DNA from: Candidatus Latescibacterota bacterium
GTDB taxonomy: Bacteria > Latescibacterota > UBA2968 > GCA-2709665
NCBI GenBank assembly: GCA_965203805.1
Contig: OZ241917.1
Location: 4,512,001 to 4,576,000 of the forward strand
DNA: 64,000 nt
Direction of reading: 5' to 3'
Below are positions 27,247 through 38,684 of the stretch, in pieces. The first letter of the stretch is position 1. The number at the start of each line of letters is the position of its first letter. The notes beneath the pieces were generated by a model. The model was not told the origin of the DNA. It saw only the letters and a program-made list of their open reading frames with translations, and did no database searches. The position numbers were made by a program, and so were the translations under genes.

Positions 27247-27582
27247 ATGACAGTCGCCTTCAAAACCCGAAAGCTCGAAAAGACCTTAAACTCCGGGAGC
27301 CTCCTTGAGAGGACGTACGGAAAGAGCAGGGCTCGGGCAATCATGATGCGGCTCGCCGTTCTTGCGAACGCGCCGACACTCGCCGCCGTTCCTCACACAC
27401 CCCCCGAACGACGACATCAGCTTACAGGTGATCGTGAAGGGCTGTACGCGGTAAATCTCGATGATCGCGCGCGGCTGATTCTTGCGCCGAATCACGACCC
27501 TGTACCCGTCCTGGACGACGGCGGAATCGACATCCAACGCGTCACGGCAATTACGATCATGGAGGTCACAGACTATCACTAA
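27247..27582 (+). CDS. higB: HigB/RelE-like toxin (plasmid maintenance killer type)
   Basis: F.T.KL.K, P..R.H.L.GDR.G..AV.L, C-terminal I.EV.DYH; toxin-first order. Confidence 0.85.
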   Translation: MTVAFKTRKLEKTLNSGSLLERTYGKSRARAIMMRLAVLANAPTLAAVPHTPPERRHQLTGDREGLYAVNLDDRARLILAPNHDPVPVLDDGGIDIQRVTAITIMEVTDYH

Positions 27583-27595
27583 AGGAGACCGAGTG

Positions 27596-28678
27596 ATGGC
27601 GACGAACCAGTACCGCCCCGACTACGCGGTTCCCCCTGGCTGGGTTCTCGCAGAGCGTCTCGAAGCCCAGGGCATTTCACATGCCGAGTTTGCAAGACGA
27701 TGCGACCGCTCGGGAAAGCTCATCAGCGAGATCGTTTCCGGAAAAGCCCCCATCGAGGCAAAGACTGCGCTTCAATTCGAGAGAGTACTTGGGGTCGATG
27801 CGGATATCTGGTTGGGAATTGAGAAGGACTATCAGTTGCACCAGATCAGGGAGTCTGAGGCCAGGCAAGCAGAAGCGTTAGCGGAGTGGGCGAAGACTTT
27901 CCCGCTCGGCGAATTGGCCAAACGAGGGGCGATTCGTACGCGCTCGGCCAGCAGAGAAGCGTATTCGGAACTGATGGCATTCTTTCGTGTGGCGTCGATC
28001 GACGCGTGGCATGTCAGATACGGGAAGGCGAACATCGCATACCGGCACTCGCCGAGTTTCAAAAGCGACGAAAACTCGCTCGCGACCTGGCTTCGACTCG
28101 CGGAGATCGACGCTGAAGCACAGAAGTGTAACGAATACGACAGGTCGGCCTTTATGGGTGCGTTGCGCCGGATCCGCAGGCTGACTCGCGCGCCATTCGA
28201 TGAGGCTCGTGATCAGACCCACGAGCTTTGCAACCACGCAGGCGTTGCGCTTGCGATGATCGAACCGCTACCAAAAGCCAGCCTTAGTGGCGCTGCGTGG
28301 TGGTTATCCCCCCGCAAACCCGTCATCGCCCTTAGCGCGCGCCACAGGACCGACGACCACCTCTGGTTCAGTCTGTTTCACGAGGCTGCACACATCCTTA
28401 TTCACAGCAAGAGAGACGTTTTCGTCGACGAAGCCAAACCCGGCGGGGCCGACCTCGAAACAGAGGCGAATGAATGGGCCTCGCACTTCCTTGTTTCGCA
28501 GTCGAACTGGCAGCAATTCGTAGATGAAGGGAGATTTACCAGTTTGGAGATTCGCGATTTTGCCGAAGAACAGGGAATCGCGCCGGGTATTGTTGTTGGA
28601 AGACTTCAACATGAAAGGCACATCGGGTGGGATCGTCTTAACGATCTCAAAGTGCGTTTGGAGTGGGTTGAGAATTGA
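27596..28678 (+). CDS. higA: HigA antitoxin fused to ImmA/IrrE-like metallopeptidase
   Basis: PPG..L...L HTH N-terminus; WFSLFHEAAH (HExxH); AAGGAG RBS. Confidence 0.85.
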   Translation: MATNQYRPDYAVPPGWVLAERLEAQGISHAEFARRCDRSGKLISEIVSGKAPIEAKTALQFERVLGVDADIWLGIEKDYQLHQIRESEARQAEALAEWAKTFPLGELAKRGAIRTRSASREAYSELMAFFRVASIDAWHVRYGKANIAYRHSPSFKSDENSLATWLRLAEIDAEAQKCNEYDRSAFMGALRRIRRLTRAPFDEARDQTHELCNHAGVALAMIEPLPKASLSGAAWWLSPRKPVIALSARHRTDDHLWFSLFHEAAHILIHSKRDVFVDEAKPGGADLETEANEWASHFLVSQSNWQQFVDEGRFTSLEIRDFAEEQGIAPGIVVGRLQHERHIGWDRLNDLKVRLEWVEN

Positions 28679-28973
28679 TGAGAGAGTCAATGAGAAACAC
28701 CTCTTGCAGTGCGCGGGACCGTAGCTCCGTTTTGGTTTATGGACTTCATCCCTCGCAGTTTTTATCAAACTGAACTTCGGAACTATGCTGAGGAACTTCC
28801 GTGTCTAAGCTGCGATTTCACACCGTCGATACGTCCGTCGGATAAAGCTATTATTCACATAGCAGTTCCTCTTCAGAAAACCAACTAAACTGTAAAATCT
28901 TGGTGTCTTCGTCTGTGGCCAGAGAGTGAAAGAAAAGCCGACAGTGCGGCTAGAGTTGGGTAAGAGGACAAGC

Positions 28974-29333
28974 ATGACGCGAGAAATTACAGTTCGAGTA
29001 TTTGACATCATTGGTGGTCCGCTTTGCGTATCTACCAGCGACGGCCAACGTCTGTACGACAGGATTGCTCCACTCTTGAGGACAGGGACGCCGGTCGTTC
29101 TTTCCTTCGAACGGATAGAGATTTTCGTCGCGGCCTTTCTCGACGCGGCGGTGGGTCAGCTTTACGGCGAGTTACCCGACGATAGCATCAGTGCATTGCT
29201 CTCGTTTCGCGATCTGGCGGATGACGACCGTGAGATGCTGGACCGTGTAATTGAAAACGCAAAACTGTACTTCAAGACCCCCGAAGATTTCGATCGCGTG
29301 TGGCATGAGGAGCTGGGCGTTGAAGAAGAATAA
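28974..29333 (+). CDS. STAS-like DUF4325 protein
   Basis: S..DG..LY..I, V.LSF..I....AFL..AVGQLY. Confidence 0.75.
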   Translation: MTREITVRVFDIIGGPLCVSTSDGQRLYDRIAPLLRTGTPVVLSFERIEIFVAAFLDAAVGQLYGELPDDSISALLSFRDLADDDREMLDRVIENAKLYFKTPEDFDRVWHEELGVEEE

Positions 29334-29384: not shown

Positions 29385-29730
29385 CGATGCGAACGCTCGG
29401 CGAAACTCATCAGCGAGATCATCTCCGGGAAAGCTCCGATTGAGCCGAACACGGCCCTTCGGTTCGAAAGGGTGCTGGGGGTCAGTGCGGACATCTGGTT
29501 GGGTGTTGAAAAGGACTATCAGATACATCAAATCCGGGAAGCCGATCCGAGGGTAGTTTAGCGCATACCGGTGCCGAAGGTGCGTTCAGGAGTCCGGACG
29601 TATTTCGTTTTGCCGACGAGCGGAACATAGCGCCCGGTATCGTCATCGGAAGGCTCCAGCACGAACGGCATATCGGGTGGAACCGGCTGAACGATATGAA
29701 GGTGCGTTTGGAGTGGGTTGAAAATTGATG
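29385..29730 (+). pseudogene. Degenerate, internally deleted second copy of higA
   Basis: 29385-29541 resembles higA ~27700-27860; ~29603-29730 resembles the higA 3' end including GTGCGTTTGGAGTGGGTTGA.AATTGATG. Confidence 0.8.
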
Positions 29731-29741
29731 CCCGAATGAGC

Positions 29742-29800
29742 AAAAAGAAACGCCCCTTTCGGGGCGTCGGGCCGGAGATGCTATCTCCGGCGGGGTGATA
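29742..29800 (-). ncRNA. Candidate ~60-nt small RNA (hairpin plus terminator)
   Basis: GCCGGAGAT..ATCTCCGGC hairpin then ACGCCCC-GAAA-GGGGCGT-TTCTTTTT; directly downstream of TTGACA-17-TATTAT once the IS1595 is removed. Confidence 0.45.
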
Positions 29801-29909
29801 CCTAAATAATAGGGGATTATAACTTAAAGTGCCAAAAAGTTCTTGCCATCGCCTTTGGATATAGTTATATTTAACTGTAAACAATGACGATACGATAAGA
29901 GAAAGGTGG

Positions 29910-30860
29910 TTGGCGATGGCACATGAGGCACCTGGAAAGCATTATCGAGAGGGCTTGTCGTTGGTGAAACTGTTTGACATGTTTCCTGATGATGCATCTG
30001 CAGAAGCATTTTTCATGCAGGCAAGATGGCCTGATGGTCCTGTCTGTCCGCACTGCAATTCTGACAATATTCAGGTTGGCATTGCTCACAAAACCATGCC
30101 TATGCGGTGTAGGAGGAACGGTTGTCGGAAGCGTTTTAGTGTGAGAGTTGGTACGGCAATGGAGTCTTCAAAACTGGGATATAGGGTCTGGATTATAGCT
30201 ATTTATCTGATGACAACCAGTTTGAAGGGCGTGTCTTCTATGAAACTTCACAGAGACTTGGAAGTAGCTCAGAAGAGTGCCTGGCACCTGGCTCATAGAA
30301 TCAGGAAGGGTCTTGTTTCTGGTAGTGAGTTTTTCTCTGGACCGGTAGAGGTTGATGAAACGTACGTCGGGGGCAAAGAGTCGAACAAGCATGCCAGTGA
30401 GAAGTTGAGAGCAGGACGTGGGACTGTGGGGAAGGCCCCAGTCGTTGGAGCTAAGGATAGGGAGACAGGTCGTGTGAAAGCAGAGGTGTCTGAGAATGTT
30501 ACTGGTGAGAATATGAGAGACTTTATTCGCCGCAGTGTTCGGCAGGGTGCAGAGGTTTTTACTGACGAGTCTACTGTTTATAGAGGACTGTCAGGGGTAC
30601 ATCATAAGCAGGTAAAGCACAGTGCTGGTGAGTATGTAAATGACCTTTGCAGTACAAACGGCTTGGAAAGCTTTTGGTCTATGCTGAAGCGTGGTTATAA
30701 TGGTACGTATCACAAGATGTCTGTAAAGCATCTTGCAAGGTATGTAAATGAGTTTGCAGGTAGACACAACATCCGCGAGTTCGACACGCTGGCGCAGATG
30801 GAAAAGGTTGCTCAGGCTATGGTCGGCAAGCGACTCAAATACAAGGAACTGACAGCATGA
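29910..30860 (+). CDS. IS1595 (ISXO2-like) DDE transposase
   Basis: RWPDGPVCPHC zinc ribbon; VEVDETYVGG, TDE, NGLESFWS, Y.NEF..R.N. Confidence 0.93.
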   Translation: MAMAHEAPGKHYREGLSLVKLFDMFPDDASAEAFFMQARWPDGPVCPHCNSDNIQVGIAHKTMPMRCRRNGCRKRFSVRVGTAMESSKLGYRVWIIAIYLMTTSLKGVSSMKLHRDLEVAQKSAWHLAHRIRKGLVSGSEFFSGPVEVDETYVGGKESNKHASEKLRAGRGTVGKAPVVGAKDRETGRVKAEVSENVTGENMRDFIRRSVRQGAEVFTDESTVYRGLSGVHHKQVKHSAGEYVNDLCSTNGLESFWSMLKRGYNGTYHKMSVKHLARYVNEFAGRHNIREFDTLAQMEKVAQAMVGKRLKYKELTA

Positions 30861-31054
30861 CTAAGGTTGTTGAAGGTCGCGTAGATCCAATCGAATTTGA
30901 GAAAAGAGCAGTCGAACGAGATCTCGCTGCTTTGTCGAAAGCCCTGGCTGCGATCTTAAACGAGACTCGTGCTTCTTCATCTTTTCCAAAAAAGACTGTA
31001 TGGGGTCGAATATCTTCGTGGTTTCGTCACCCCCTTCGAGATCAGAAACTGTAA
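30857..31054 (+). CDS. Small hypothetical protein (antisense-overlap pair 1, plus strand)
   Basis: ATGA-coupled to transposase stop; similar to 31284-31475. Confidence 0.45.
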   Translation: MTKVVEGRVDPIEFEKRAVERDLAALSKALAAILNETRASSSFPKKTVWGRISSWFRHPLRDQKL

Positions 31055-31154
31055 GAGAGAGAGCCACATTATACCTTGAAAGAACTTCGGCAATATCGTC
31101 TATTTCGTAGTCCTCAAACTTAGACAACTGATTTTCAATTCTCCTTTTACTCAC
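30861..31154 (-). CDS. Hypothetical protein (pair 1, minus strand)
   Basis: AAAGGGG RBS before GTG; paralog of 31288-31560 (AL..TV, DP...FLE, LS..QRD). Confidence 0.6.
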   Translation of the reverse strand: MSKRRIENQLSKFEDYEIDDIAEVLSRYNVALSLTVSDLEGGDETTKIFDPIQSFLEKMKKHESRLRSQPGLSTKQRDLVRLLFSQIRLDLRDLQQP

Positions 31155-31283
31155 GAGGTTTTCCCCTTTCATGAAAAAAGCCCTGAGGGCGTAGCATACC
31201 AGTCTCCTTGTAGTTTAAACTCTAACGAAGAAAGTAGGCGGCGTGCTTTTCCAGACTCCGCAGGAACGAAGGGAGTTGATAGC

Positions 31284-31475
31284 GTGGTCAAGACTGTCGA
31301 TGACCGTCAAGAACGCCGGCGCGAAGTGTTGAATGCAGAGTTTTTAAAAAATCGCGCTGCGGTGAAGAAAGGGCTTGAACAGTTTGTATCTCATCTACCT
31401 GAAAGTCCAACTCTTCAAGAAACGCCTTTACGGGATCTGGTTTCTGAGATATATCGTCGAGTTCTAAGACGGTAA
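31284..31475 (+). CDS. Small hypothetical protein (pair 2, plus strand)
   Basis: AAGGGAG RBS; similar to 30857-31054. Confidence 0.45.
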   Translation: MVKTVDDRQERRREVLNAEFLKNRAAVKKGLEQFVSHLPESPTLQETPLRDLVSEIYRRVLRR

Positions 31476-31560
31476 ACTGTAGGGCGGTGACGAACGCTCC
31501 TATAGAGTCCTCAATGCCTCTGAATAGATCATCGAATTTGGGACCCTGTTTTCTGGCCAT
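31288..31560 (-). CDS. Hypothetical protein (pair 2, minus strand)
   Basis: AGGAG RBS; paralog of 30861-31154. Confidence 0.6.
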   Translation of the reverse strand: MARKQGPKFDDLFRGIEDSIGAFVTALQFTVLELDDISQKPDPVKAFLEELDFQVDEIQTVQALSSPQRDFLKTLHSTLRAGVLDGHRQS

Positions 31561-31629
31561 TGAGGCTCCTCTGGGTAGAAAGAAGGGAAGAGAAGTGGAT
31601 TTTCCGGAGGAAGTTTACTGGATTGATTG

Positions 31630-32022
31630 TTACCTCAGTGTATCAATCCTGTCAGTAAACCTGCTTCTGGCCTTATTATGAGCCAGGATTCTGGAATAAT
31701 CGCCACCACCTCTGTAAGAATACATGTTCGCTCTGCTTCTTATCCTATTTCTCGCATCTCTTGGAAGGTGGTTAGTAATTTCTGCAACAATAGTTTCCAG
31801 AAATACAACCTGACCCTCCAGCTCTGTTATTCTTTGCTGGTCAGAAGCATTTGAAGCTCTTCCCGGACCGGCAAGAATAAGTACAGAAACCAAAAGGACA
31901 ACGAGAGTAATACCTACAATGCTTTTGAGGAGAGTGCCGAACCCTTCCATCGCAAGCCTCCTAACGATGATGTGGACATTTTTGGTACCTGGCAAAAGGT
32001 GCCGGGCAGTGTCCACAATCAC
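31630..32022 (-). CDS. Membrane-anchored hypothetical protein (IS cargo; true start probably at MEGFG)
   Basis: AGGAGG before internal Met; TM helix then coiled coil. Confidence 0.55.
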   Translation of the reverse strand: MIVDTARHLLPGTKNVHIIVRRLAMEGFGTLLKSIVGITLVVLLVSVLILAGPGRASNASDQQRITELEGQVVFLETIVAEITNHLPRDARNRIRSRANMYSYRGGGDYSRILAHNKARSRFTDRIDTLR

Positions 32023-32167
32023 GCAAAGAGTATGCGGGAAGGTTCCTGCTTATTCGCCAGAGATCAGGGAGCTACCCTTCTCTCGTGGTTTTCGGCTGTT
32101 GTATTTGGCAGGCTACCCGACATGCGGGCTTTGCCTGATTGCGGACATTTGGAGTATATGTTATTAG

Positions 32168-32196
32168 TTGACAAAACGCAAGAGGAAAAATAAATT
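32168..32196 (+). promoter_or_regulatory. Sigma70-like promoter in IS cargo
   Basis: TTGACA-17-TAAATT followed by GGAGG RBS and ATG at 32214. Confidence 0.6.
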
Positions 32197-32213
32197 TATA
32201 CTGGAGGCTGGTT

Positions 32214-32384
32214 ATGCAGAACGAATTGAGACAGCAAATGATACAGGAAGTTCTTGACGGGAAGGATGCCAAGGAGGTAGTTCGTGCATCGTTTACAGAA
32301 GACGAGCCAGAGACAGAACCAGAGGAAGACAACAGTTTGGAAAACAGAGCAAAGAGGTTCCTTGAAAAACAACTGTCAAGTTAA
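32214..32384 (+). CDS. 56-aa acidic hypothetical protein (below ORF-track cut-off)
   Basis: MQNELRQQMIQEVLDGKDAK...LEKQLSS*; GGAGG RBS. Confidence 0.5.
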   Translation: MQNELRQQMIQEVLDGKDAKEVVRASFTEDEPETEPEEDNSLENRAKRFLEKQLSS

Positions 32385-32405
32385 GGGGAAATAAAGGGAG
32401 ATTGT

Positions 32406-32624
32406 ATGGCTGCTAAGAGAGGAAGACCCAGAAAAAACACAGAGGTTGGCAGTAGTGGTTACCACCCTACAGAAGAAGAGTTGAATGAGGACGTCAGTAT
32501 CAATGCCTCTCCAGAGGAAGTTATACAGTCCCTGTTCCCCAAAAACCAACCAGTCGAGAAGTCCGGAAAAGGAGAACAGGTGAAAAAAGAATGGGACGAA
32601 TGGCTCAAGAGTTTAAGAGCCTGA
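32406..32624 (+). CDS. Small hypothetical protein at the IS1595 right end
   Basis: AGGGAG RBS; KRGRPRK AT-hook-like N-terminus. Confidence 0.6.
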   Translation: MAAKRGRPRKNTEVGSSGYHPTEEELNEDVSINASPEEVIQSLFPKNQPVEKSGKGEQVKKEWDEWLKSLRA

Positions 32625-32680
32625 CTACAGAAAAACCCCTTTTATTCTTAGATTTTGGCACTTTAAGTTATAATCCCCAA

Positions 32681-32709
32681 ATAATAACATCTTCCATGGA
32701 AATTGTCAA
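32681..32709 (-). promoter_or_regulatory. Near-consensus sigma70 promoter whose -10 box lies within the IS1595 target duplication
   Basis: Minus strand TTGACA (32709-32704), 17 nt, TATTAT (32686-32681). Confidence 0.65.
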
Positions 32710-32810
32710 TGGCAAAAAGTGCAGTCGAAAGAAAACATAAAACCACGTCGAACCGGGTTATTGTGTACGTAGACGGCTTCGTCCTGCGCCGACCGGTCAA
32801 GTGGAATTGA
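32709..32810 (+). pseudogene. Collapsed NYN-domain gene (N- and C-termini only)
   Basis: Reads MAK...NRVIVYVDGF-VLRRPVKWN*; RVIVYVDGF is a typical NYN first strand. Confidence 0.55.
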
Positions 32811-33010: not shown

Positions 33011-34543
33011 ATGGCCGACCCAACAGCACACGACTCGCTTGAACTCGAAGTGAACGATTTTGGACCGATAGTCAAGGCTAAAGTCGATTTACGTCCGCTG
33101 ACGGTATTCGTCGGCCCTAGCAATACTGGGAAATCGTATCTGGCGACATTAATCTATGCGCTGCATATGTATTTTACGGGTAGATCGATCACTTCTCGGT
33201 TCTTCTTGACCTATGAGAGGCTTCTTAATCTTGGTCCAACTTTTGTGGACAGGGAAACTCTCAACGCGCTTAACGAGTTTCTGATGGAAGTGACAAACTG
33301 GACGGGAGATATGTGGAGTAAAAAGGAAGTGGTTTTACCCATCCCAATTGTCAAGGCCATTTGTTCAATGTTTGAGTTACAGAACGATCAACTCCACAGT
33401 GAAATCGAGAGGTGCTTTGGCATCGACAGTGCCAGCGCACTCATCCGGAAAGGCAACAGGCGATGCGCGCGGATTGTATTGCGGAAATCTATTTCAGGGG
33501 AATCGGCATCGTTTGAACACGAACTGACACTGAAGTCGAACGCACCTGAATTCGTGACGGCGATGCGCAATGTGGAACAACTGAGGATTAAACTCGACGA
33601 CAGGAAAGAGTTCGTTGAGTACTACGACCGACTGAAGAGTACGTTTTTAATACCTGATAAAATGAGCCAGGATTCGTATCGACAAGCGCTGGGGCCAATC
33701 AACCATTTGCTTGGACTCGCGCTACCTTACCTATTGGGTTCGCTTTATCGCGCAGCATACTATCTCCCCGCCGATCGAACCGGCGTGATGAATAGCCATC
33801 AGGTCGTGGTGAGCGCGTTGATACAGAACGCTACAACTGCCGGGCTACGTCCCGATGAAGAAATTCCAATGCTGTCGGGTGTTTTGGGTGATTTTCTGCA
33901 AAACTTGCTCGTCTTGCCCAGCGCGGCAAATCGTCAACGCACGCCCAAGAAACATCTGGGTGCGCGAATTGAAGATCTGATTCTCGGCGGATCGATTCAA
34001 GTCGAGAGGTCGGAGTTGATCAGCTACCCGCACTTCACCTATACACCCGAGGGATGGAAACATCCGATGCCTTTGATGAATGCCTCTTCAATGGTATCGG
34101 AAATCGCGCCGGTCGTGATGTTTCTTCGCCATCTGGTTAACCCCGGCACTATGCTCGTAATCGAAGAACCCGAATCACACATGCATCCGGCGATGCAGGT
34201 GGAATTCACTCGTCAAATCGCCACGCTGGTTAGGGCGGGCGTCAGGGTAATCGTCACCACGCACAGCGAGTGGGTTCTGGAGGAACTCGCGAACATCGTG
34301 CGACGCTCCGAACTTCCCAAGTCTCGTCGAAAGGAGATGCGCCACGGCGAATTTGCCCTTCGTCCCGATCAGGTGGGGGCATGGCTGTTCAAGCCGAAGC
34401 GCCGACCAAAGGGATCGGTCGTCGAAGAAATTCGATTCGACCCCGATGCAGGTGGGCTTGAAAGCGATTTCAACGAAGTTGGCCGACAATTATACAATGA
34501 TTGGGCGACGATCGGTAACCGTATTGCAGGAAACACCGAATAA
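33011..34543 (+). CDS. ABC-type (AAA_15/21) ATPase
   Basis: FGPI, GPSNTGKS, PADR, IEEPESHMHP, TTHS. Confidence 0.88.
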   Translation: MADPTAHDSLELEVNDFGPIVKAKVDLRPLTVFVGPSNTGKSYLATLIYALHMYFTGRSITSRFFLTYERLLNLGPTFVDRETLNALNEFLMEVTNWTGDMWSKKEVVLPIPIVKAICSMFELQNDQLHSEIERCFGIDSASALIRKGNRRCARIVLRKSISGESASFEHELTLKSNAPEFVTAMRNVEQLRIKLDDRKEFVEYYDRLKSTFLIPDKMSQDSYRQALGPINHLLGLALPYLLGSLYRAAYYLPADRTGVMNSHQVVVSALIQNATTAGLRPDEEIPMLSGVLGDFLQNLLVLPSAANRQRTPKKHLGARIEDLILGGSIQVERSELISYPHFTYTPEGWKHPMPLMNASSMVSEIAPVVMFLRHLVNPGTMLVIEEPESHMHPAMQVEFTRQIATLVRAGVRVIVTTHSEWVLEELANIVRRSELPKSRRKEMRHGEFALRPDQVGAWLFKPKRRPKGSVVEEIRFDPDAGGLESDFNEVGRQLYNDWATIGNRIAGNTE

Positions 34544-35010
34544 TGTGTCGCGTGGTCGACCGGTTGAAAGACGGACTTCCTGAAGGGGCCATCGTTAAGA
34601 GATGCTCGGCCGAGGGGTGCGCTGTTCCGTTGAAAGATGCCCCTGCGCCGCATCTGATTATGGATCTGGATCACCCTTTTTTCCGGCTGAAGGACAAGAT
34701 CCATTGCGATTTTCTGTTTATCAGTTGTGACTGCAATGTTGGATACAACTGGGTTGTTCCTCTGGAACTGAAAGGTGGCAGTCCTGATGCAACAGAAATG
34801 GTATCGCAGCTAATGGCAGGGTCAAATTTCGCGCAAGCCTGGATACCGGAAGATCACAAGATCCAGTTCCGCCCCGTGGGCGTCTTTGGTGGCCGCTTGC
34901 ATAAATTCCAAAGAGACAAGCTTAGAAGGGCTCGCATTTTGTATCGAAGGAAACGGTACGAAGTCAAACTCATACGATGTGGGACGCCGTTAGTTGTTGC
35001 TCTTGCGTAA
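34543..35010 (+). CDS. Hypothetical partner protein, PD-(D/E)XK-like
   Basis: TAATG coupling to ATPase; CDFLF...ELK...QL pattern. Confidence 0.6.
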   Translation: MCRVVDRLKDGLPEGAIVKRCSAEGCAVPLKDAPAPHLIMDLDHPFFRLKDKIHCDFLFISCDCNVGYNWVVPLELKGGSPDATEMVSQLMAGSNFAQAWIPEDHKIQFRPVGVFGGRLHKFQRDKLRRARILYRRKRYEVKLIRCGTPLVVALA

Positions 35011-35021
35011 GAGAAAACCAT

Positions 35022-38000
35022 ATGACTGTTACTAGAAAGAAACTCATCGAAGTCGCCCTGCCGCTTGACGCGATCAACGCTGCGTCGGCTCGAGAAAAGT
35101 CGATCCGCCACGGCCACCCCAGCACCCTGCACCTCTGGTGGGCGCGACGGCCATTGGCGGCGGCGCGCGCTGTAATCTTCGCGCAGATAGTGGACGATCC
35201 GTCGGCCTGTCCGGAGGAGTTTCCAACTGAAGCGGACCAGGAAAAGGAGCGGCAGCGCCTGTTCCGGCTCATCGGGGAACTGGTAAAGTGGGAAAACACC
35301 ACCAACGAGGCCGTGTTGGAACGGGCACGTAAGGAAATCCGAAGGAGTTGGCGGAGGACGTGCGCAGACAATCGGGACCATCCACGCGCCGATGAGTTGT
35401 TCGACCCGGACAAGCTACCGGCCTTCCACGATCCTTTCGCCGGCGGCGGCGCGTTGCCGCTGGAAGCCCAGCGCCTTGGCCTGGAAGCCCACGCCAGCGA
35501 CCTCAATCCGGTGGCTGTGCTTATCAACAAAGCAATGATCGAAATTCCGCCGAAATTTGCGGGCAGACCGCCGGTCAACCCGGAGGCACGGGAGAAGTAT
35601 CTCGGCGCAGGGACATCCCATTCGACGAAACCCTTGCTGGGAGCGCGGGCGCCTGCCTGTGCGTTGCACGCAGACAGGTCCCGCCCGCATAGGGTCTGGC
35701 ACAGCCGCGGATATCTTCCTCATTTGGATCAATCCGAAATCATACAATGCATCACATTTCGCTTGGCGGATTCAATTCCAGCCAATGTTATTGCCGCCTG
35801 GAAGAGCGAATTGGCGCTTTCGGGTGAGGAACCAGCGAGCGATCCGCGTTGTGTGGAATTACGAAAAAAGATCGAACGATACGCCGGTCAGGGACACGGC
35901 GCTTGCTGGCTACAGGACGAGCGGATAGCAGATCAAGTCGAAAGGGCGCTATTGCACTTCGACGGCGTACGGTATCGCTTACTATCGTGGGCCATTATGC
36001 CCAATCACGTGCACGCATTGATCGAAACGACGGCCGGCTTTCCACTTGAAGGCGTCATTCATTCGTGGAAGTCTTACACAGCCAAGCAAATTAACAAGAT
36101 TCTCGGACGGCGCGGCCAGGTCTGGGAAGAGGATTACTTCGATCGTTATATCCGCGATCAGAAACATCTCGCTAACGAAATAGACTATATTGAGCAGAAC
36201 CCCGTGAAAGCCGGGCTTGTTGACAAGGCAACTGAATGGCCGTGGAGCAGTGCTGCAAGGAATGCGGAAGGAGCGAAATTTACGGGAGTTACAGAGGAAC
36301 ATGCGGACGGGACGGTGCTTGACGGAGTAAGAAAAAAGCATGCGGACGGGACGTCCGCGCTCCCAGGATTATGGACCGGTGCGAAGGGACTTGCGGAGGA
36401 CGTCCGTTACTACGGTCAGTGGATGCGCGACGAAGCCGAGAAACGTATAGGGCATCTTTATCCGAAGGTCGAAGTAACTCCTGAAATGGCGCAGGAACGT
36501 CCAGACCTTAAACAATACGAGGGCCGAAAGTTGACGGTGATTGCGTGGCTGTGGGCGCGTACGGTCAAGAGTCCGAATCCGGCATTTGCGGATGTCAATG
36601 TACCGCTCGTATCGACGTTCAGGCTATCGACAAAGAAAGGAAAAGAGGCATACGTCGAGCCGGAGATAGAGGGGCGCAGTTATCGGTTTGCGGTTCGGGT
36701 TGGGAGTCCAACGGACCCTGAGGCGGCCAAGCGGGGCACGACAGCGGGTAAACGTCAGGCATTTCGTTGCCTGATGTCTGGTGTGCCGGTACCGTACGAC
36801 CACGTTCGAAACGAGGGTAAGGCCGGACGAATGGACGCGCGATTGATGGCTGTTGTAGCCGAGGGTGATAGGGGAAGAGTATATCTGTCGCCGACAAGAG
36901 AACATGAATCAATCGCGAGAAAAGCAAACCCCGAATGGAAGCCTGAGTTGGCTCTTCCCAACAACCCGCGGGACTTCAAAACCCCGAATTACGGTCTTCC
37001 CACTTTCGCAGACCTATTCACCGACCGCCAACTCGTTGCGTTGATCACCTTTTCCGATCTCGTAGGGGAGGCATTGAAGCGAGTCAAGCGCGATTACCTT
37101 GCCGCGCGGGTCCCCGACAGACATCTGGTCGGGACACCAAAGTCACCGGATAATAACGCGCGCCTGCGTGAGGGAGGTAACGGCGCGTCAGCGTACGCGC
37201 AGGCAGTTGGTACGTATCTCAGTCTTGGGGTAAGCAAATTGTCCGACGCTCAATCATCGCTATGCCGATGGAAAGCCACAATGAATCAGTCGATTGCTAC
37301 GTTTGGACGACAGGCATTGCCCATGGTCTGGGACTACTCTGAGGCGAATGTGTTTGCTGGAATGGCCGGCGATCCTCTCGTGTCGATCAATAACATGATG
37401 CGCGTGGTTGACGAATTGCCGACTTCGATAGGTGGGCGGGCAAATCAGGGACCCGCACAATCTCTGGTACGTGATGATTCTCCCGTCGTCTCTACTGACC
37501 CCCCGTACTACGATAATGTCGGTTATGCCGATTTATCGGACTACTTTTACGTCTGGTTACGGCATTCGATTAGATCGAAATATCCAGAATTGTTCGCCAC
37601 ACTTGCGGTTCCTAAGACTGAAGAACTGGTCGCAACACCTTATCGTCACGGAAGCAAAGAAAAGGCGGAGACGTTTTTTCTGGACGGCATGGTTCAGGCT
37701 ATGAAATGCCTCGCTGAACAGTCGCATCCAGGCTTCCCGGTTTCGATTTACTACGCCTTCAAGCAGTCCGAAACAAAAGGTGAATTTGGTACATCCAGCA
37801 CCGGCTGGGAGACATTTTTGGATGCGGTAATCCGAGCCGGATTCACCGTCACAGGCACTTGGCCGATACGGACCGAGTTAAGCAATCGTATGATCGGATC
37901 AGGAAAAAACGCTCTCGCTTCCAGCATTGTCCTCGTCTGTCGCAAGCGTTTGGCTGGGGCTCCACTGGCAACCCGTCGAGAATTCGCAGCCGCATTGCGG

Positions 38001-38684
38001 GAAGAGCTTCCCGGTGCTATTGCGCAATTGCAAAGCGGTAACATTGCGCCAGTAGACCTTGCCCAGTCGGCAATTGGACCTGGGATGGCAGTGTATACTC
38101 GGTACTCCAAAGTGCTTGACGCGCAGGGCAACCGCGTATCGGTGGGCGATGCTCTTGCGCTGATCAATCAGACTCTGGACGAAGTACTCGCCGAACAGGA
38201 AGGAGAATTTGACTCTGACACCCGTTGGGCACTCGCCTGGTTCGAGCAGAACGGGTTCGATGAGGGGGAGTTTGGCGTGGCAGAGACCCTGTCCAAAGCA
38301 AAAAACACTAGCATCGACGGCATCGTTGAAGGAGGAATTCTCGCCTCACGCGCGGGCAGGGTTCGACTGTTGCGCCCAAACGAGTTGGCACGTGATTGGG
38401 AGCCAACCACGGACAAACGTCTCACTGTGTGGGAAGCAGTCCAATATCTGGTCCACGCCCTCGAATCCAGCGGCGAATTCGCCGCTGCTAAGCTGGTTCA
38501 TCAACTCGGCGGTCTCGCCGAAACCGCGCGCGAATTGGCTTATCGACTATATACGATATGTGAGCGCAAGAATCGCGCCGATGAAGCCCGATCCTACAAT
38601 GGCCTCGTGCAGAGTTGGCCGGAAATCGCTAGATTGGCGCGGGAACGGGCACCGGCGGAGCAAAGCGAGTTGTTTGGGGATTGA
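35022..38684 (+). CDS. DUF1156 adenine DNA methyltransferase carrying an in-frame RAYT insert
   Basis: KKLIEVALPL, LHLWWARRPL, DPFAGGG (motif I), TDPPYYDN (motif IV). Confidence 0.9.
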   Translation: MTVTRKKLIEVALPLDAINAASAREKSIRHGHPSTLHLWWARRPLAAARAVIFAQIVDDPSACPEEFPTEADQEKERQRLFRLIGELVKWENTTNEAVLERARKEIRRSWRRTCADNRDHPRADELFDPDKLPAFHDPFAGGGALPLEAQRLGLEAHASDLNPVAVLINKAMIEIPPKFAGRPPVNPEAREKYLGAGTSHSTKPLLGARAPACALHADRSRPHRVWHSRGYLPHLDQSEIIQCITFRLADSIPANVIAAWKSELALSGEEPASDPRCVELRKKIERYAGQGHGACWLQDERIADQVERALLHFDGVRYRLLSWAIMPNHVHALIETTAGFPLEGVIHSWKSYTAKQINKILGRRGQVWEEDYFDRYIRDQKHLANEIDYIEQNPVKAGLVDKATEWPWSSAARNAEGAKFTGVTEEHADGTVLDGVRKKHADGTSALPGLWTGAKGLAEDVRYYGQWMRDEAEKRIGHLYPKVEVTPEMAQERPDLKQYEGRKLTVIAWLWARTVKSPNPAFADVNVPLVSTFRLSTKKGKEAYVEPEIEGRSYRFAVRVGSPTDPEAAKRGTTAGKRQAFRCLMSGVPVPYDHVRNEGKAGRMDARLMAVVAEGDRGRVYLSPTREHESIARKANPEWKPELALPNNPRDFKTPNYGLPTFADLFTDRQLVALITFSDLVGEALKRVKRDYLAARVPDRHLVGTPKSPDNNARLREGGNGASAYAQAVGTYLSLGVSKLSDAQSSLCRWKATMNQSIATFGRQALPMVWDYSEANVFAGMAGDPLVSINNMMRVVDELPTSIGGRANQGPAQSLVRDDSPVVSTDPPYYDNVGYADLSDYFYVWLRHSIRSKYPELFATLAVPKTEELVATPYRHGSKEKAETFFLDGMVQAMKCLAEQSHPGFPVSIYYAFKQSETKGEFGTSSTGWETFLDAVIRAGFTVTGTWPIRTELSNRMIGSGKNALASSIVLVCRKRLAGAPLATRREFAAALREELPGAIAQLQSGNIAPVDLAQSAIGPGMAVYTRYSKVLDAQGNRVSVGDALALINQTLDEVLAEQEGEFDSDTRWALAWFEQNGFDEGEFGVAETLSKAKNTSIDGIVEGGILASRAGRVRLLRPNELARDWEPTTDKRLTVWEAVQYLVHALESSGEFAAAKLVHQLGGLAETARELAYRLYTICERKNRADEARSYNGLVQSWPEIARLARERAPAEQSELFGD
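35637..36366 (+). mobile_element. REP-flanked RAYT module embedded in frame in the methylase
   Basis: Inverted ends CTGGGAGCGCGG / CCGCGCTCCCAG; RGYLPH, TFRLADS, MPNHVH, SWKSYT, YFDRYIR, YI..NPVKAGL. Confidence 0.88.

Follow-up and report, generated by a model that had tools for sequence, protein, structure and literature searches.

Tandem paralogous passenger genes and their antisense open reading frames in an IS1595-family transporter insertion sequence of a Latescibacterota bacterium

The element and the layout of its genes

The window analysed here is the whole stretch of 64,000 nucleotides (nt) at positions 4,512,001 to 4,576,000 of contig OZ241917.1 (assembly GCA_965203805.1), from a Candidatus Latescibacterota bacterium; positions given below are counted from its first letter. 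It carries a complete insertion sequence (IS) of the IS1595 family of the transporter type (tIS), in which passenger genes accompany the transposase gene. Five passenger genes, named A to E, are found in the element. A and B are minus-strand paralogues, and each is covered for much of its length by an open reading frame (ORF) of the opposite strand, named plus ORF A and plus ORF B, respectively (Table 1). A and B are real passenger genes, and the two plus ORFs are probably shadow frames whose openness is favoured by the sequence of the protein family. The initial annotation of the window, made from its letters, had proposed two paralogous modules of conserved, dual-coding gene pairs in IS1595 cargo. 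The paralogy and the cargo setting stand; the view of the plus ORFs as conserved genes is not supported.

Table 1. Coordinates of the element, its genes and the features discussed (window positions unless a locus is named; aa, amino acids)
Feature	Position	Strand	Remarks
Complete IS1595-family tIS	29812..32678	+	2867 bp; transposase gene and ~1.8 kb of passenger genes
Left terminal inverted repeat	29812..29837	+	26 nt, 100% match to reverse complement of 32653-32678
Right terminal inverted repeat	32653..32678	-	26 nt
Target-site duplication AAATAATA, left copy	29804..29811		8 bp; right copy 32679-32686
IS1595-family transposase	29910..30860	+	316 aa from TTG; ATG 29916 is the likelier start, with AAAGGTGG ahead of the ATG
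Plus ORF A	30857-31054	+	65 aa, ATG start; over A; judged probably non-coding
Passenger gene A	30861-31172	-	103 aa, predicted helical-bundle protein, unnamed family
Plus ORF B	31284-31475	+	63 aa, GTG start; over B; judged probably non-coding
Passenger gene B	31288-31560	-	90 aa, paralogue of A; GAGGAG precedes start
Passenger gene C	31630..31950	-	106 aa from ATG 31950; AGGAGG upstream; N-terminal hydrophobic segment
Passenger gene D	32214..32384	+	56 aa, acidic (isoelectric point 4.4); GGAGG ahead of start
Passenger gene E	32406..32624	+	72 aa, AT-hook-like N-terminus; GGGAG ahead of start
PD-Lambda-2_B-like gene	27482-28678		7.5e-38
DUF4325 STAS-like protein gene	28926-29333		
PD-T4-4_A-like ATPase gene	33011-34543		5.3e-33
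HmaB-like methylase gene	34977-38684		E-value 0; also Pfam Y1_Tnp (IS200-like) match, residues 332-408
Cargo IS1595 carrying H (genome G014)	L017 1593-4352		~2760 bp, 25-nt inverted repeats

The perfect 26-nt inverted repeat was revealed by a DNA search of the window's own genome and, together with the same 8 bases on both flanks, sets the length of the element at 2867 bp. A target duplication of 8 bp is typical of the IS1595 family. The transposase matches Pfam models DDE_Tnp_IS1595 (PF12762, E-value 4.6e-40) and Zn_ribbon_IS1595 (PF12760, 2.5e-09) and the NCBIfam model transpos_IS1595 (NF033547, 4.3e-55), and its gene is preceded by a promoter-like TTGCCA-17-TATATT (29843-29871). The site without the element is found in a 6168-nt contig of the sponge-metagenome run X4, which joins 29799 to 32695 with 2895 nt skipped and 20 other letters between. 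The features of an IS1595 tIS are all present, namely a DDE transposase with a zinc ribbon, inverted repeats, an 8-bp duplication, passenger genes and an empty site, and the assignment of this region to IS1595 cargo is borne out by the repeats, the transposase domains and the empty site. The element is complete and recently mobile. A second X4 contig of 5010 nt holds a diverged copy of it that matches 31320-32386 with 37 differences. Where the element has 30861-31319, this copy has 307 letters that cannot be aligned, and its identity over the 3' end of the transposase gene is ~75%. Gene A is thus replaced in this mosaic copy, and its slot seems exchangeable between copies of the element.

The minus-strand cargo genes follow the order C, then B, then A, and the plus-strand genes are D, then E. 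C, B and A form an apparent gene set that converges head-on with the transposase gene. The stop codons of the transposase gene and of gene A abut, with 0 nt between them, and the transposase TGA is overlapped by the ATG of plus ORF A, whose frame is open back to 30764, inside the transposase gene. An extension of the transposase into plus ORF A by frameshifting was considered and rejected: the transposase domains are complete without it and no slippery run was seen by eye. The region 29700-32800 has three terminator-like sites, none of them between the transposase gene and A or B. Strong Shine-Dalgarno (SD)-like motifs precede 5 of the 6 real genes of the element. Gene A has no such motif; an upstream minus-strand ORF of 16 codons (31147-31198), with AAGGAG at 31204-31209, 6 nt ahead of its ATG, overlaps the gene A start in a different frame and may be a leader or a coupling device for gene A.

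A rare family of small helical proteins

The products of A and B share 25 of 85 aligned residues (29%, E-value 2e-9), which confirms the paralogy previously noted for the minus-strand proteins. The exact A protein is present in the public protein collection (P0001). A word-indexed protein search returned, besides the window's own proteins, one homologue of A (P0002, 74% identical) and four of B (66-85% identical). An exhaustive profile search of 1.84 billion representative proteins gave 8 matches at E<=0.001, of which five are small proteins (P0005, which is NCBI MCY3764053.1, and P0002, P0008, P0009 and P0013), three of them beyond those of the word-indexed search. The other three (P0010-P0012, 770-1653 aa) were matched through 4-8 short repeated stretches and were set aside as repeat artefacts. 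The small homologues besides A, B and a further member named H amount to eight (P0002, P0004-P0009, P0013). The pattern conserved in the family comprises the motifs T-V, F-L and L-S..Q-R-D.

The AlphaFold2 model of A has four helices (mean pLDDT, the predicted local distance difference test score, 83.5). Comparison of this model with the PDB by Foldseek gave no match at E<=0.001 (best 0.81), and the best VIA-align wide match (Z 7.5) is within the range that the tool calls common for helical models. A sequence-profile search of the PDB found nothing below E 0.25, and the best ESM Atlas score for B, 0.80, is a lead only. Neither the five passenger gene products, C included, nor the proteins of plus ORFs A and B reach a family at threshold in Pfam, NCBIfam, PADLOC or PHROGs. 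For A, B and the two plus proteins this extends to the domains of type II toxin-antitoxin systems, and the sole sub-threshold row for these four links B to TRPM_tetra (15 bits against a cutoff of 26.6).

Members of the family are very rare among the 168 genomes of the phylum that were searched. The profile A1 matched 2 genomes, including the window's own, and the profile A3 matched 5 at E<=0.05, three of which were set aside as weak matches (E 0.01-0.025) in open frames of 298-825 aa. One member remains outside the window's genome, H, in a genome of the same genus (G014). Two metagenome-contig loci were also dropped, L007 because the match lies inside a LacI-family regulator and L008 together with it, as its match statistics are the same. 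No homologue DNA was found in genome contigs (protein patterns and a 22-nt inverted-repeat pattern), in viral contigs, in plasmids (DNA search and tblastn with P0005, A and H) or in phages (tblastn with P0005).

H codes for 84 aa, is 26% identical to B (E-value 1e-6) and is the first gene inside a second cargo IS1595, directly upstream of its transposase gene. The order in this element is a promoter-like site at the left end, H, a terminator-like hairpin (1923-1940), the transposase gene and a convergent gene coding an N6/N4 DNA methylase (440 aa, Pfam 6.8e-54) with a restriction-endonuclease-like carboxyl terminus. The presence of H in another cargo IS1595, at a different position relative to the transposase gene, indicates that the family recurs in IS1595 elements. 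A and B thus form a true tandem pair of paralogues, and the unnamed family to which they belong, of predicted helical-bundle proteins of roughly 80-100 aa, is very rare. It can be guessed that they are a partner pair of small helical proteins serving the element, either in regulation of transposition or in anti-defence or addiction.

The antisense frames over A, B and H

All four ORFs of the two modules were found exactly where the initial annotation had placed them. The minus-strand stop codon lies 4 nt past the plus-strand start in both (ATG-A-CTA in A, GTG-G-TCA in B), and the coordinates set plus codon position 1 opposite minus codon position 1 (pos1:pos1, or phase 1). This geometry had been correctly described, as had the AT-richness of the DNA, since 29800-32800 has a G+C content of 44-48% and the genome 59%. 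In a second antisense phase, in which plus position 1 faces minus position 2, gene A has a 69-codon stop-free run that is longer than plus ORF A; no ORF of at least 40 aa is listed in that phase over the gene.

Open antisense frames of this size are common in comparable DNA. A phase-1 antisense run of the size observed occurs in 13.0% of the GC-matched control segments for A (n=682) and in 14.3% for B (n=774), and a run of that size in any antisense phase in 56% and 54%, respectively. Antisense runs over C, D and E span 54-74 codons. A stop in the pos1:pos1 phase requires a sense codon ending in TT, CT or TC followed by a codon beginning with A, and is forced only by Phe followed by Ile, Met, Thr, Asn or Lys. 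The amino acid sequences of the family would offer few codon pairs able to make such a stop, which would leave the frame open. The two plus ORFs terminate at equivalent positions, one residue ahead of the invariant Thr in the T-V motif (Phe-Thr in B, Leu-Thr encoded by CTT-ACA in A), and their ends would lie where this conserved motif forces or allows a stop. A codon-usage log-odds model trained on the other genes of the element was discarded as uninformative, the best score in module B having gone to the frame that has no ORF.

Several observations weigh against plus ORFs that are mere shadows of their sense genes. The same phase is open in all three family members whose DNA was read (A, B and H). 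Over H the antisense ORF has 85 codons, an ATG start and AAGGAG ahead of it; it begins 22 nt past the sense stop, as compared to 4 nt in A and B, and covers nearly the whole gene. H was found through its sense protein, so its antisense ORF is an independent replicate. An SD-like motif lies 6-9 nt ahead of the start of each of the three antisense ORFs (AAGGA at 9 nt for plus ORF A, GGAG within AAGGGAG at 8 nt for plus ORF B); among 26,171 small ORFs of the genome, ~4% have a 5-mer of this kind and ~10% have at least a 4-mer. The whole arrangement (a phase-1 ORF that starts 0-40 nt past the 3' end of the gene, runs at least 50 codons into it and has an SD-like motif) is seen in 5 of 2153 control pseudo-genes, and in 89 of 2153 if the motif is left out, with the proviso that the composite was chosen after H had been seen and that H does not fit the 4-nt spacing of A and B, which is a stricter criterion. 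Synonymous shuffling within each gene gives a probability of a run at least as long as observed of 0.083 for A, 0.049 for B and 0.043 for H (Fisher 0.008), under a test that is mildly anti-conservative (p<=0.05 in 6.8% of 250 control segments). The pooled codon usage of the element gives, for no stop in the zone, 0.008, 0.057 and 0.064, respectively (Fisher 0.002). Lastly, of the X4 differences listed, a single one falls within the overlap (31469); it changes the B protein and is silent in the plus ORF.

A context-aware codon model, built on 158 low-GC ORFs of the genome, yields 0.30 for A, 0.18 for B and 0.21 for H (Fisher 0.18). The same data give a combined p as low as 0.002 or as high as 0.18; the significance of the antisense ORFs depends strongly on the codon null, and the plus ORFs go beyond chance only modestly. 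An anti-SD hairpin as an explanation for the pyrimidine motifs downstream of the sense stops was tried and rejected, the folds being no better than those of shuffled sequences.

The plus-strand proteins, which had been described as aligning with each other, give no BLASTP alignment at E<=100. The same holds for the pairs that plus A and plus B each form with the H antisense protein, so that none of the three antisense pairs aligns, whereas the sense pairs tested identically do align (A-B and B-H, with the E-values given above). In register with the minus-strand alignment, the plus frame has 16% identity and a BLOSUM62 score of -0.06 per site, below the other two antisense frames, which contain stops (28% and 0.41; 24% and 0.58). 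Relative to the synonymous-shuffle null, most of the other frames and pairs score slightly higher, and to a similar extent, so that the excess is a matter of shared codon choice and not of selection on the plus frame.

Amino acid replacements lead to the same result. A and P0002 differ at 17 of 61 residues inside the overlap and at 9 of 41 outside, and B and its four homologues at 64 of 228 inside and 32 of 120 outside. Replacements at the first codon position alter the plus protein, while those at the second are mostly silent there. For B, position-1 and position-2 replacement paths stand at 15:22 in the overlap and 8:12 outside, and for A at 7:2 and 5:2 (Fisher p = 1.0 in both), with no depletion of first-position replacements in the overlapped zone of either set. 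The two plus ORFs and the H antisense ORF are absent among ~15 billion called proteins, a collection that contains A, B, C, D, E and H, and no homologue of plus B was found in it. Having no alignment, no replacement constraint and no family match, the plus ORFs do not behave as partners in the conserved overlapping gene pairs that had been proposed. Retention of both frames in homologues, the check suggested with that proposal, is seen in H, the sole homologue whose DNA was read, which keeps the same-phase ORF, a start and an SD-like motif; it does not extend to conservation of the plus protein. Dual coding is accordingly unproven and, as H keeps the open phase-1 frame, not refuted.

The diverged X4 copy can be read against this background. 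In B, four of the five differences listed leave the minus-strand protein unchanged, and those in its amino-terminal part all occupy third positions of minus-frame codons. D has 18 differences in 171 nt, 16 of them at codon position 3 and 14 of these synonymous, and C has a single listed difference over 321 nt, which is synonymous. The start of plus ORF B, its SD-like motif and its first 12 codons fall in a stretch that does not align at 80%, and the remainder is ~96.5% identical. No listed difference falls in 31320-31468, with 5 of the 37 differences of the contig piece being unlisted. Depressed variation was rejected as a signal of the overlap: gene C, which was not flagged as dual-coding, is also poor in differences, and the mosaic nature of the copy allows no inference from it.

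On balance, the sequences suggest with a probability of about 0.6 that A and B are real passenger genes accompanied by shadow frames, and we infer that the plus ORFs have no purposeful translation. Functional antisense translation, either as a peptide or as a regulatory act, would be unlikely. The real minority chance that it keeps is owed chiefly to H and to the SD-like motif of each of the three ORFs. In its family-wide form a translated pos1:pos1 antisense ORF would be kept across members that are 21-29% identical, what is conserved being the act of translation or a fast-evolving basic peptide, with coupling of cargo and transposase expression; as a reading of these sequences this is doubtful. 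True dual coding, with each module pairing a helical minus protein with a basic plus protein of 63-65 aa in a toxin/antitoxin-like or regulator pair, is a slim prospect. It would account for the finding that A, B and, independently, H each have an antisense ORF in the same phase, complete with a start and an SD-like motif, for the low composite rate and for the open-frame p of 0.04-0.08 in each gene under the synonymous shuffle, as well as for the charge of the plus proteins (isoelectric points of 10.3 for plus A and 10.1 for plus B), given that A (5.8) and B (4.8) are acidic to neutral. It fits poorly with three antisense proteins that share no similarity, an in-register likeness below that of stop-containing frames, replacement patterns that show no plus-frame constraint and plus ORFs uncalled in every annotation of the protein collection. 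The different geometry of H, the position of the plus ORF B start, motif and first codons in the non-aligning X4 stretch and the lack of a match to toxin or antitoxin families in the databases searched also count against it. Nor do the plus proteins have the trait of type I toxins, which are small, hydrophobic, membrane-active peptides: both are hydrophilic (grand average of hydropathy -0.42 and -0.80) as well as basic.

If transcription from the transposase side through the cargo, and perhaps translation, were what matters and not the peptide, open frames and SD-like motifs without peptide conservation would fit a role independent of sequence. As the stops of the transposase gene and gene A abut and none of the terminator-like sites separates the transposase gene from A or B, the two mRNAs would have to overlap. 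If ribosomes restarted at the ATGA overlap, the 3' extension of the transposase gene could stay translated, which would tie transposase and cargo expression to each other. The different arrangement of H argues against such regulation, since its antisense ORF is directed away from the transposase gene and L017 1500-2400 yielded no promoter-like site on the minus strand that could serve it. RNA folds of the spacers are likewise no more stable than shuffles (z +0.80 for the B-A spacer, +0.93 for the H-transposase spacer), and this type of regulation looks rather improbable from the sequences. A reversal of roles, with the real genes on the plus strand and the shadows on the minus strand, is next to inconceivable: nothing beyond the starts and SD-like motifs speaks for it, homologues, conserved motifs and a confident fold are found on the minus side only, and the X4 differences in the amino-terminal part of B keep to minus-frame third positions.

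Other passenger genes, genomic neighbourhood and known systems

The exact C protein is found in the public protein collection on 2 contigs, and the D and E proteins are present there as well. An imperfect 26-nt inverted repeat (31608-31665, 73% complementary, 6-nt spacer) extends from the 3' end of gene C to the region upstream of B, and a minus-strand promoter-like site (31655-31626) overlaps it. Gene D is preceded by a promoter-like TTGACA-17-TAAATT at 32168-32196. The amino terminus of protein E has a KRGRPRK stretch (Pfam AT_hook E-value 0.048, below the cutoff), and E may bind AT-rich DNA.

The element is flanked by genes whose products resemble PD-Lambda-2_B, PD-T4-4_A and the methylase HmaB, and by a DUF4325 gene, and from the sequence these surroundings resemble a defence island. 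The same genome has another IS1595 transposase gene (L002, G000:C1:2208619-2212279; 69% DNA identity). Two minus-strand ORFs, of 101 aa and 171 aa (helical), lie 183 nt downstream of it, and the 101-aa ORF has a weak ParE_toxin match (E 0.0015) that is below the Pfam cutoff.

IS1595 subgroups such as ISPna2 and ISNwi1 include passenger-bearing members. The element described here shares with IS1595 tIS the passenger genes within inverted repeats, and adds to its DDE transposase with zinc ribbon, its 26-nt repeats and its 8-bp duplication the particularity that none of the five passenger genes belongs to a named family and that two of them are paralogues of a rarely seen one. According to a TnCentral preprint, IS-like elements with passenger genes are termed transporter IS and are so far confined to the IS1595 and IS66 families. 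Type II toxin-antitoxin cargo offers a likeness in its small two-gene modules on a mobile element, to which the weak ParE-like ORF of the L002 copy can be added; it differs in that A, B and the plus ORFs match no toxin or antitoxin model and that A and B are mutual paralogues, unlike a toxin-antitoxin pair. Control of a transposase by antisense RNA is exemplified by RNA-OUT of IS10. Overlapping convergent or antisense transcription within an IS could couple expression here as well, except that the overlap would be at the 3' end of the transposase gene and would involve passenger genes. Antisense overlapping genes of Escherichia coli O157:H7 and Pseudomonas aeruginosa are reported to have support from RNA sequencing, ribosome profiling or phenotype (for example PMC5960689, PMC7103648, PMC9927249, PMC8850804). 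Like them, the plus ORFs are embedded antisense in a gene with a start and a ribosome-binding-site-like motif of their own, and unlike them they are predicted from sequence. A preprint (bioRxiv 10.1101/724807) considers long antiparallel ORFs unlikely to encode essential proteins.

The solid result is a complete IS1595 tIS in a neighbourhood of defence genes, with five unnamed passenger genes and a new family of small, predicted helical proteins found repeatedly in IS1595 elements. Translation of the plus ORFs, if it occurred, would place them among the very few antisense overlapping genes retained across deeply diverged paralogues, and the result would be an overlapping antisense gene, heritable and shared by the family, that is carried by a mobile element. 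Their location would also ease its testing, because the 2.9-kb element could be moved into a laboratory host.

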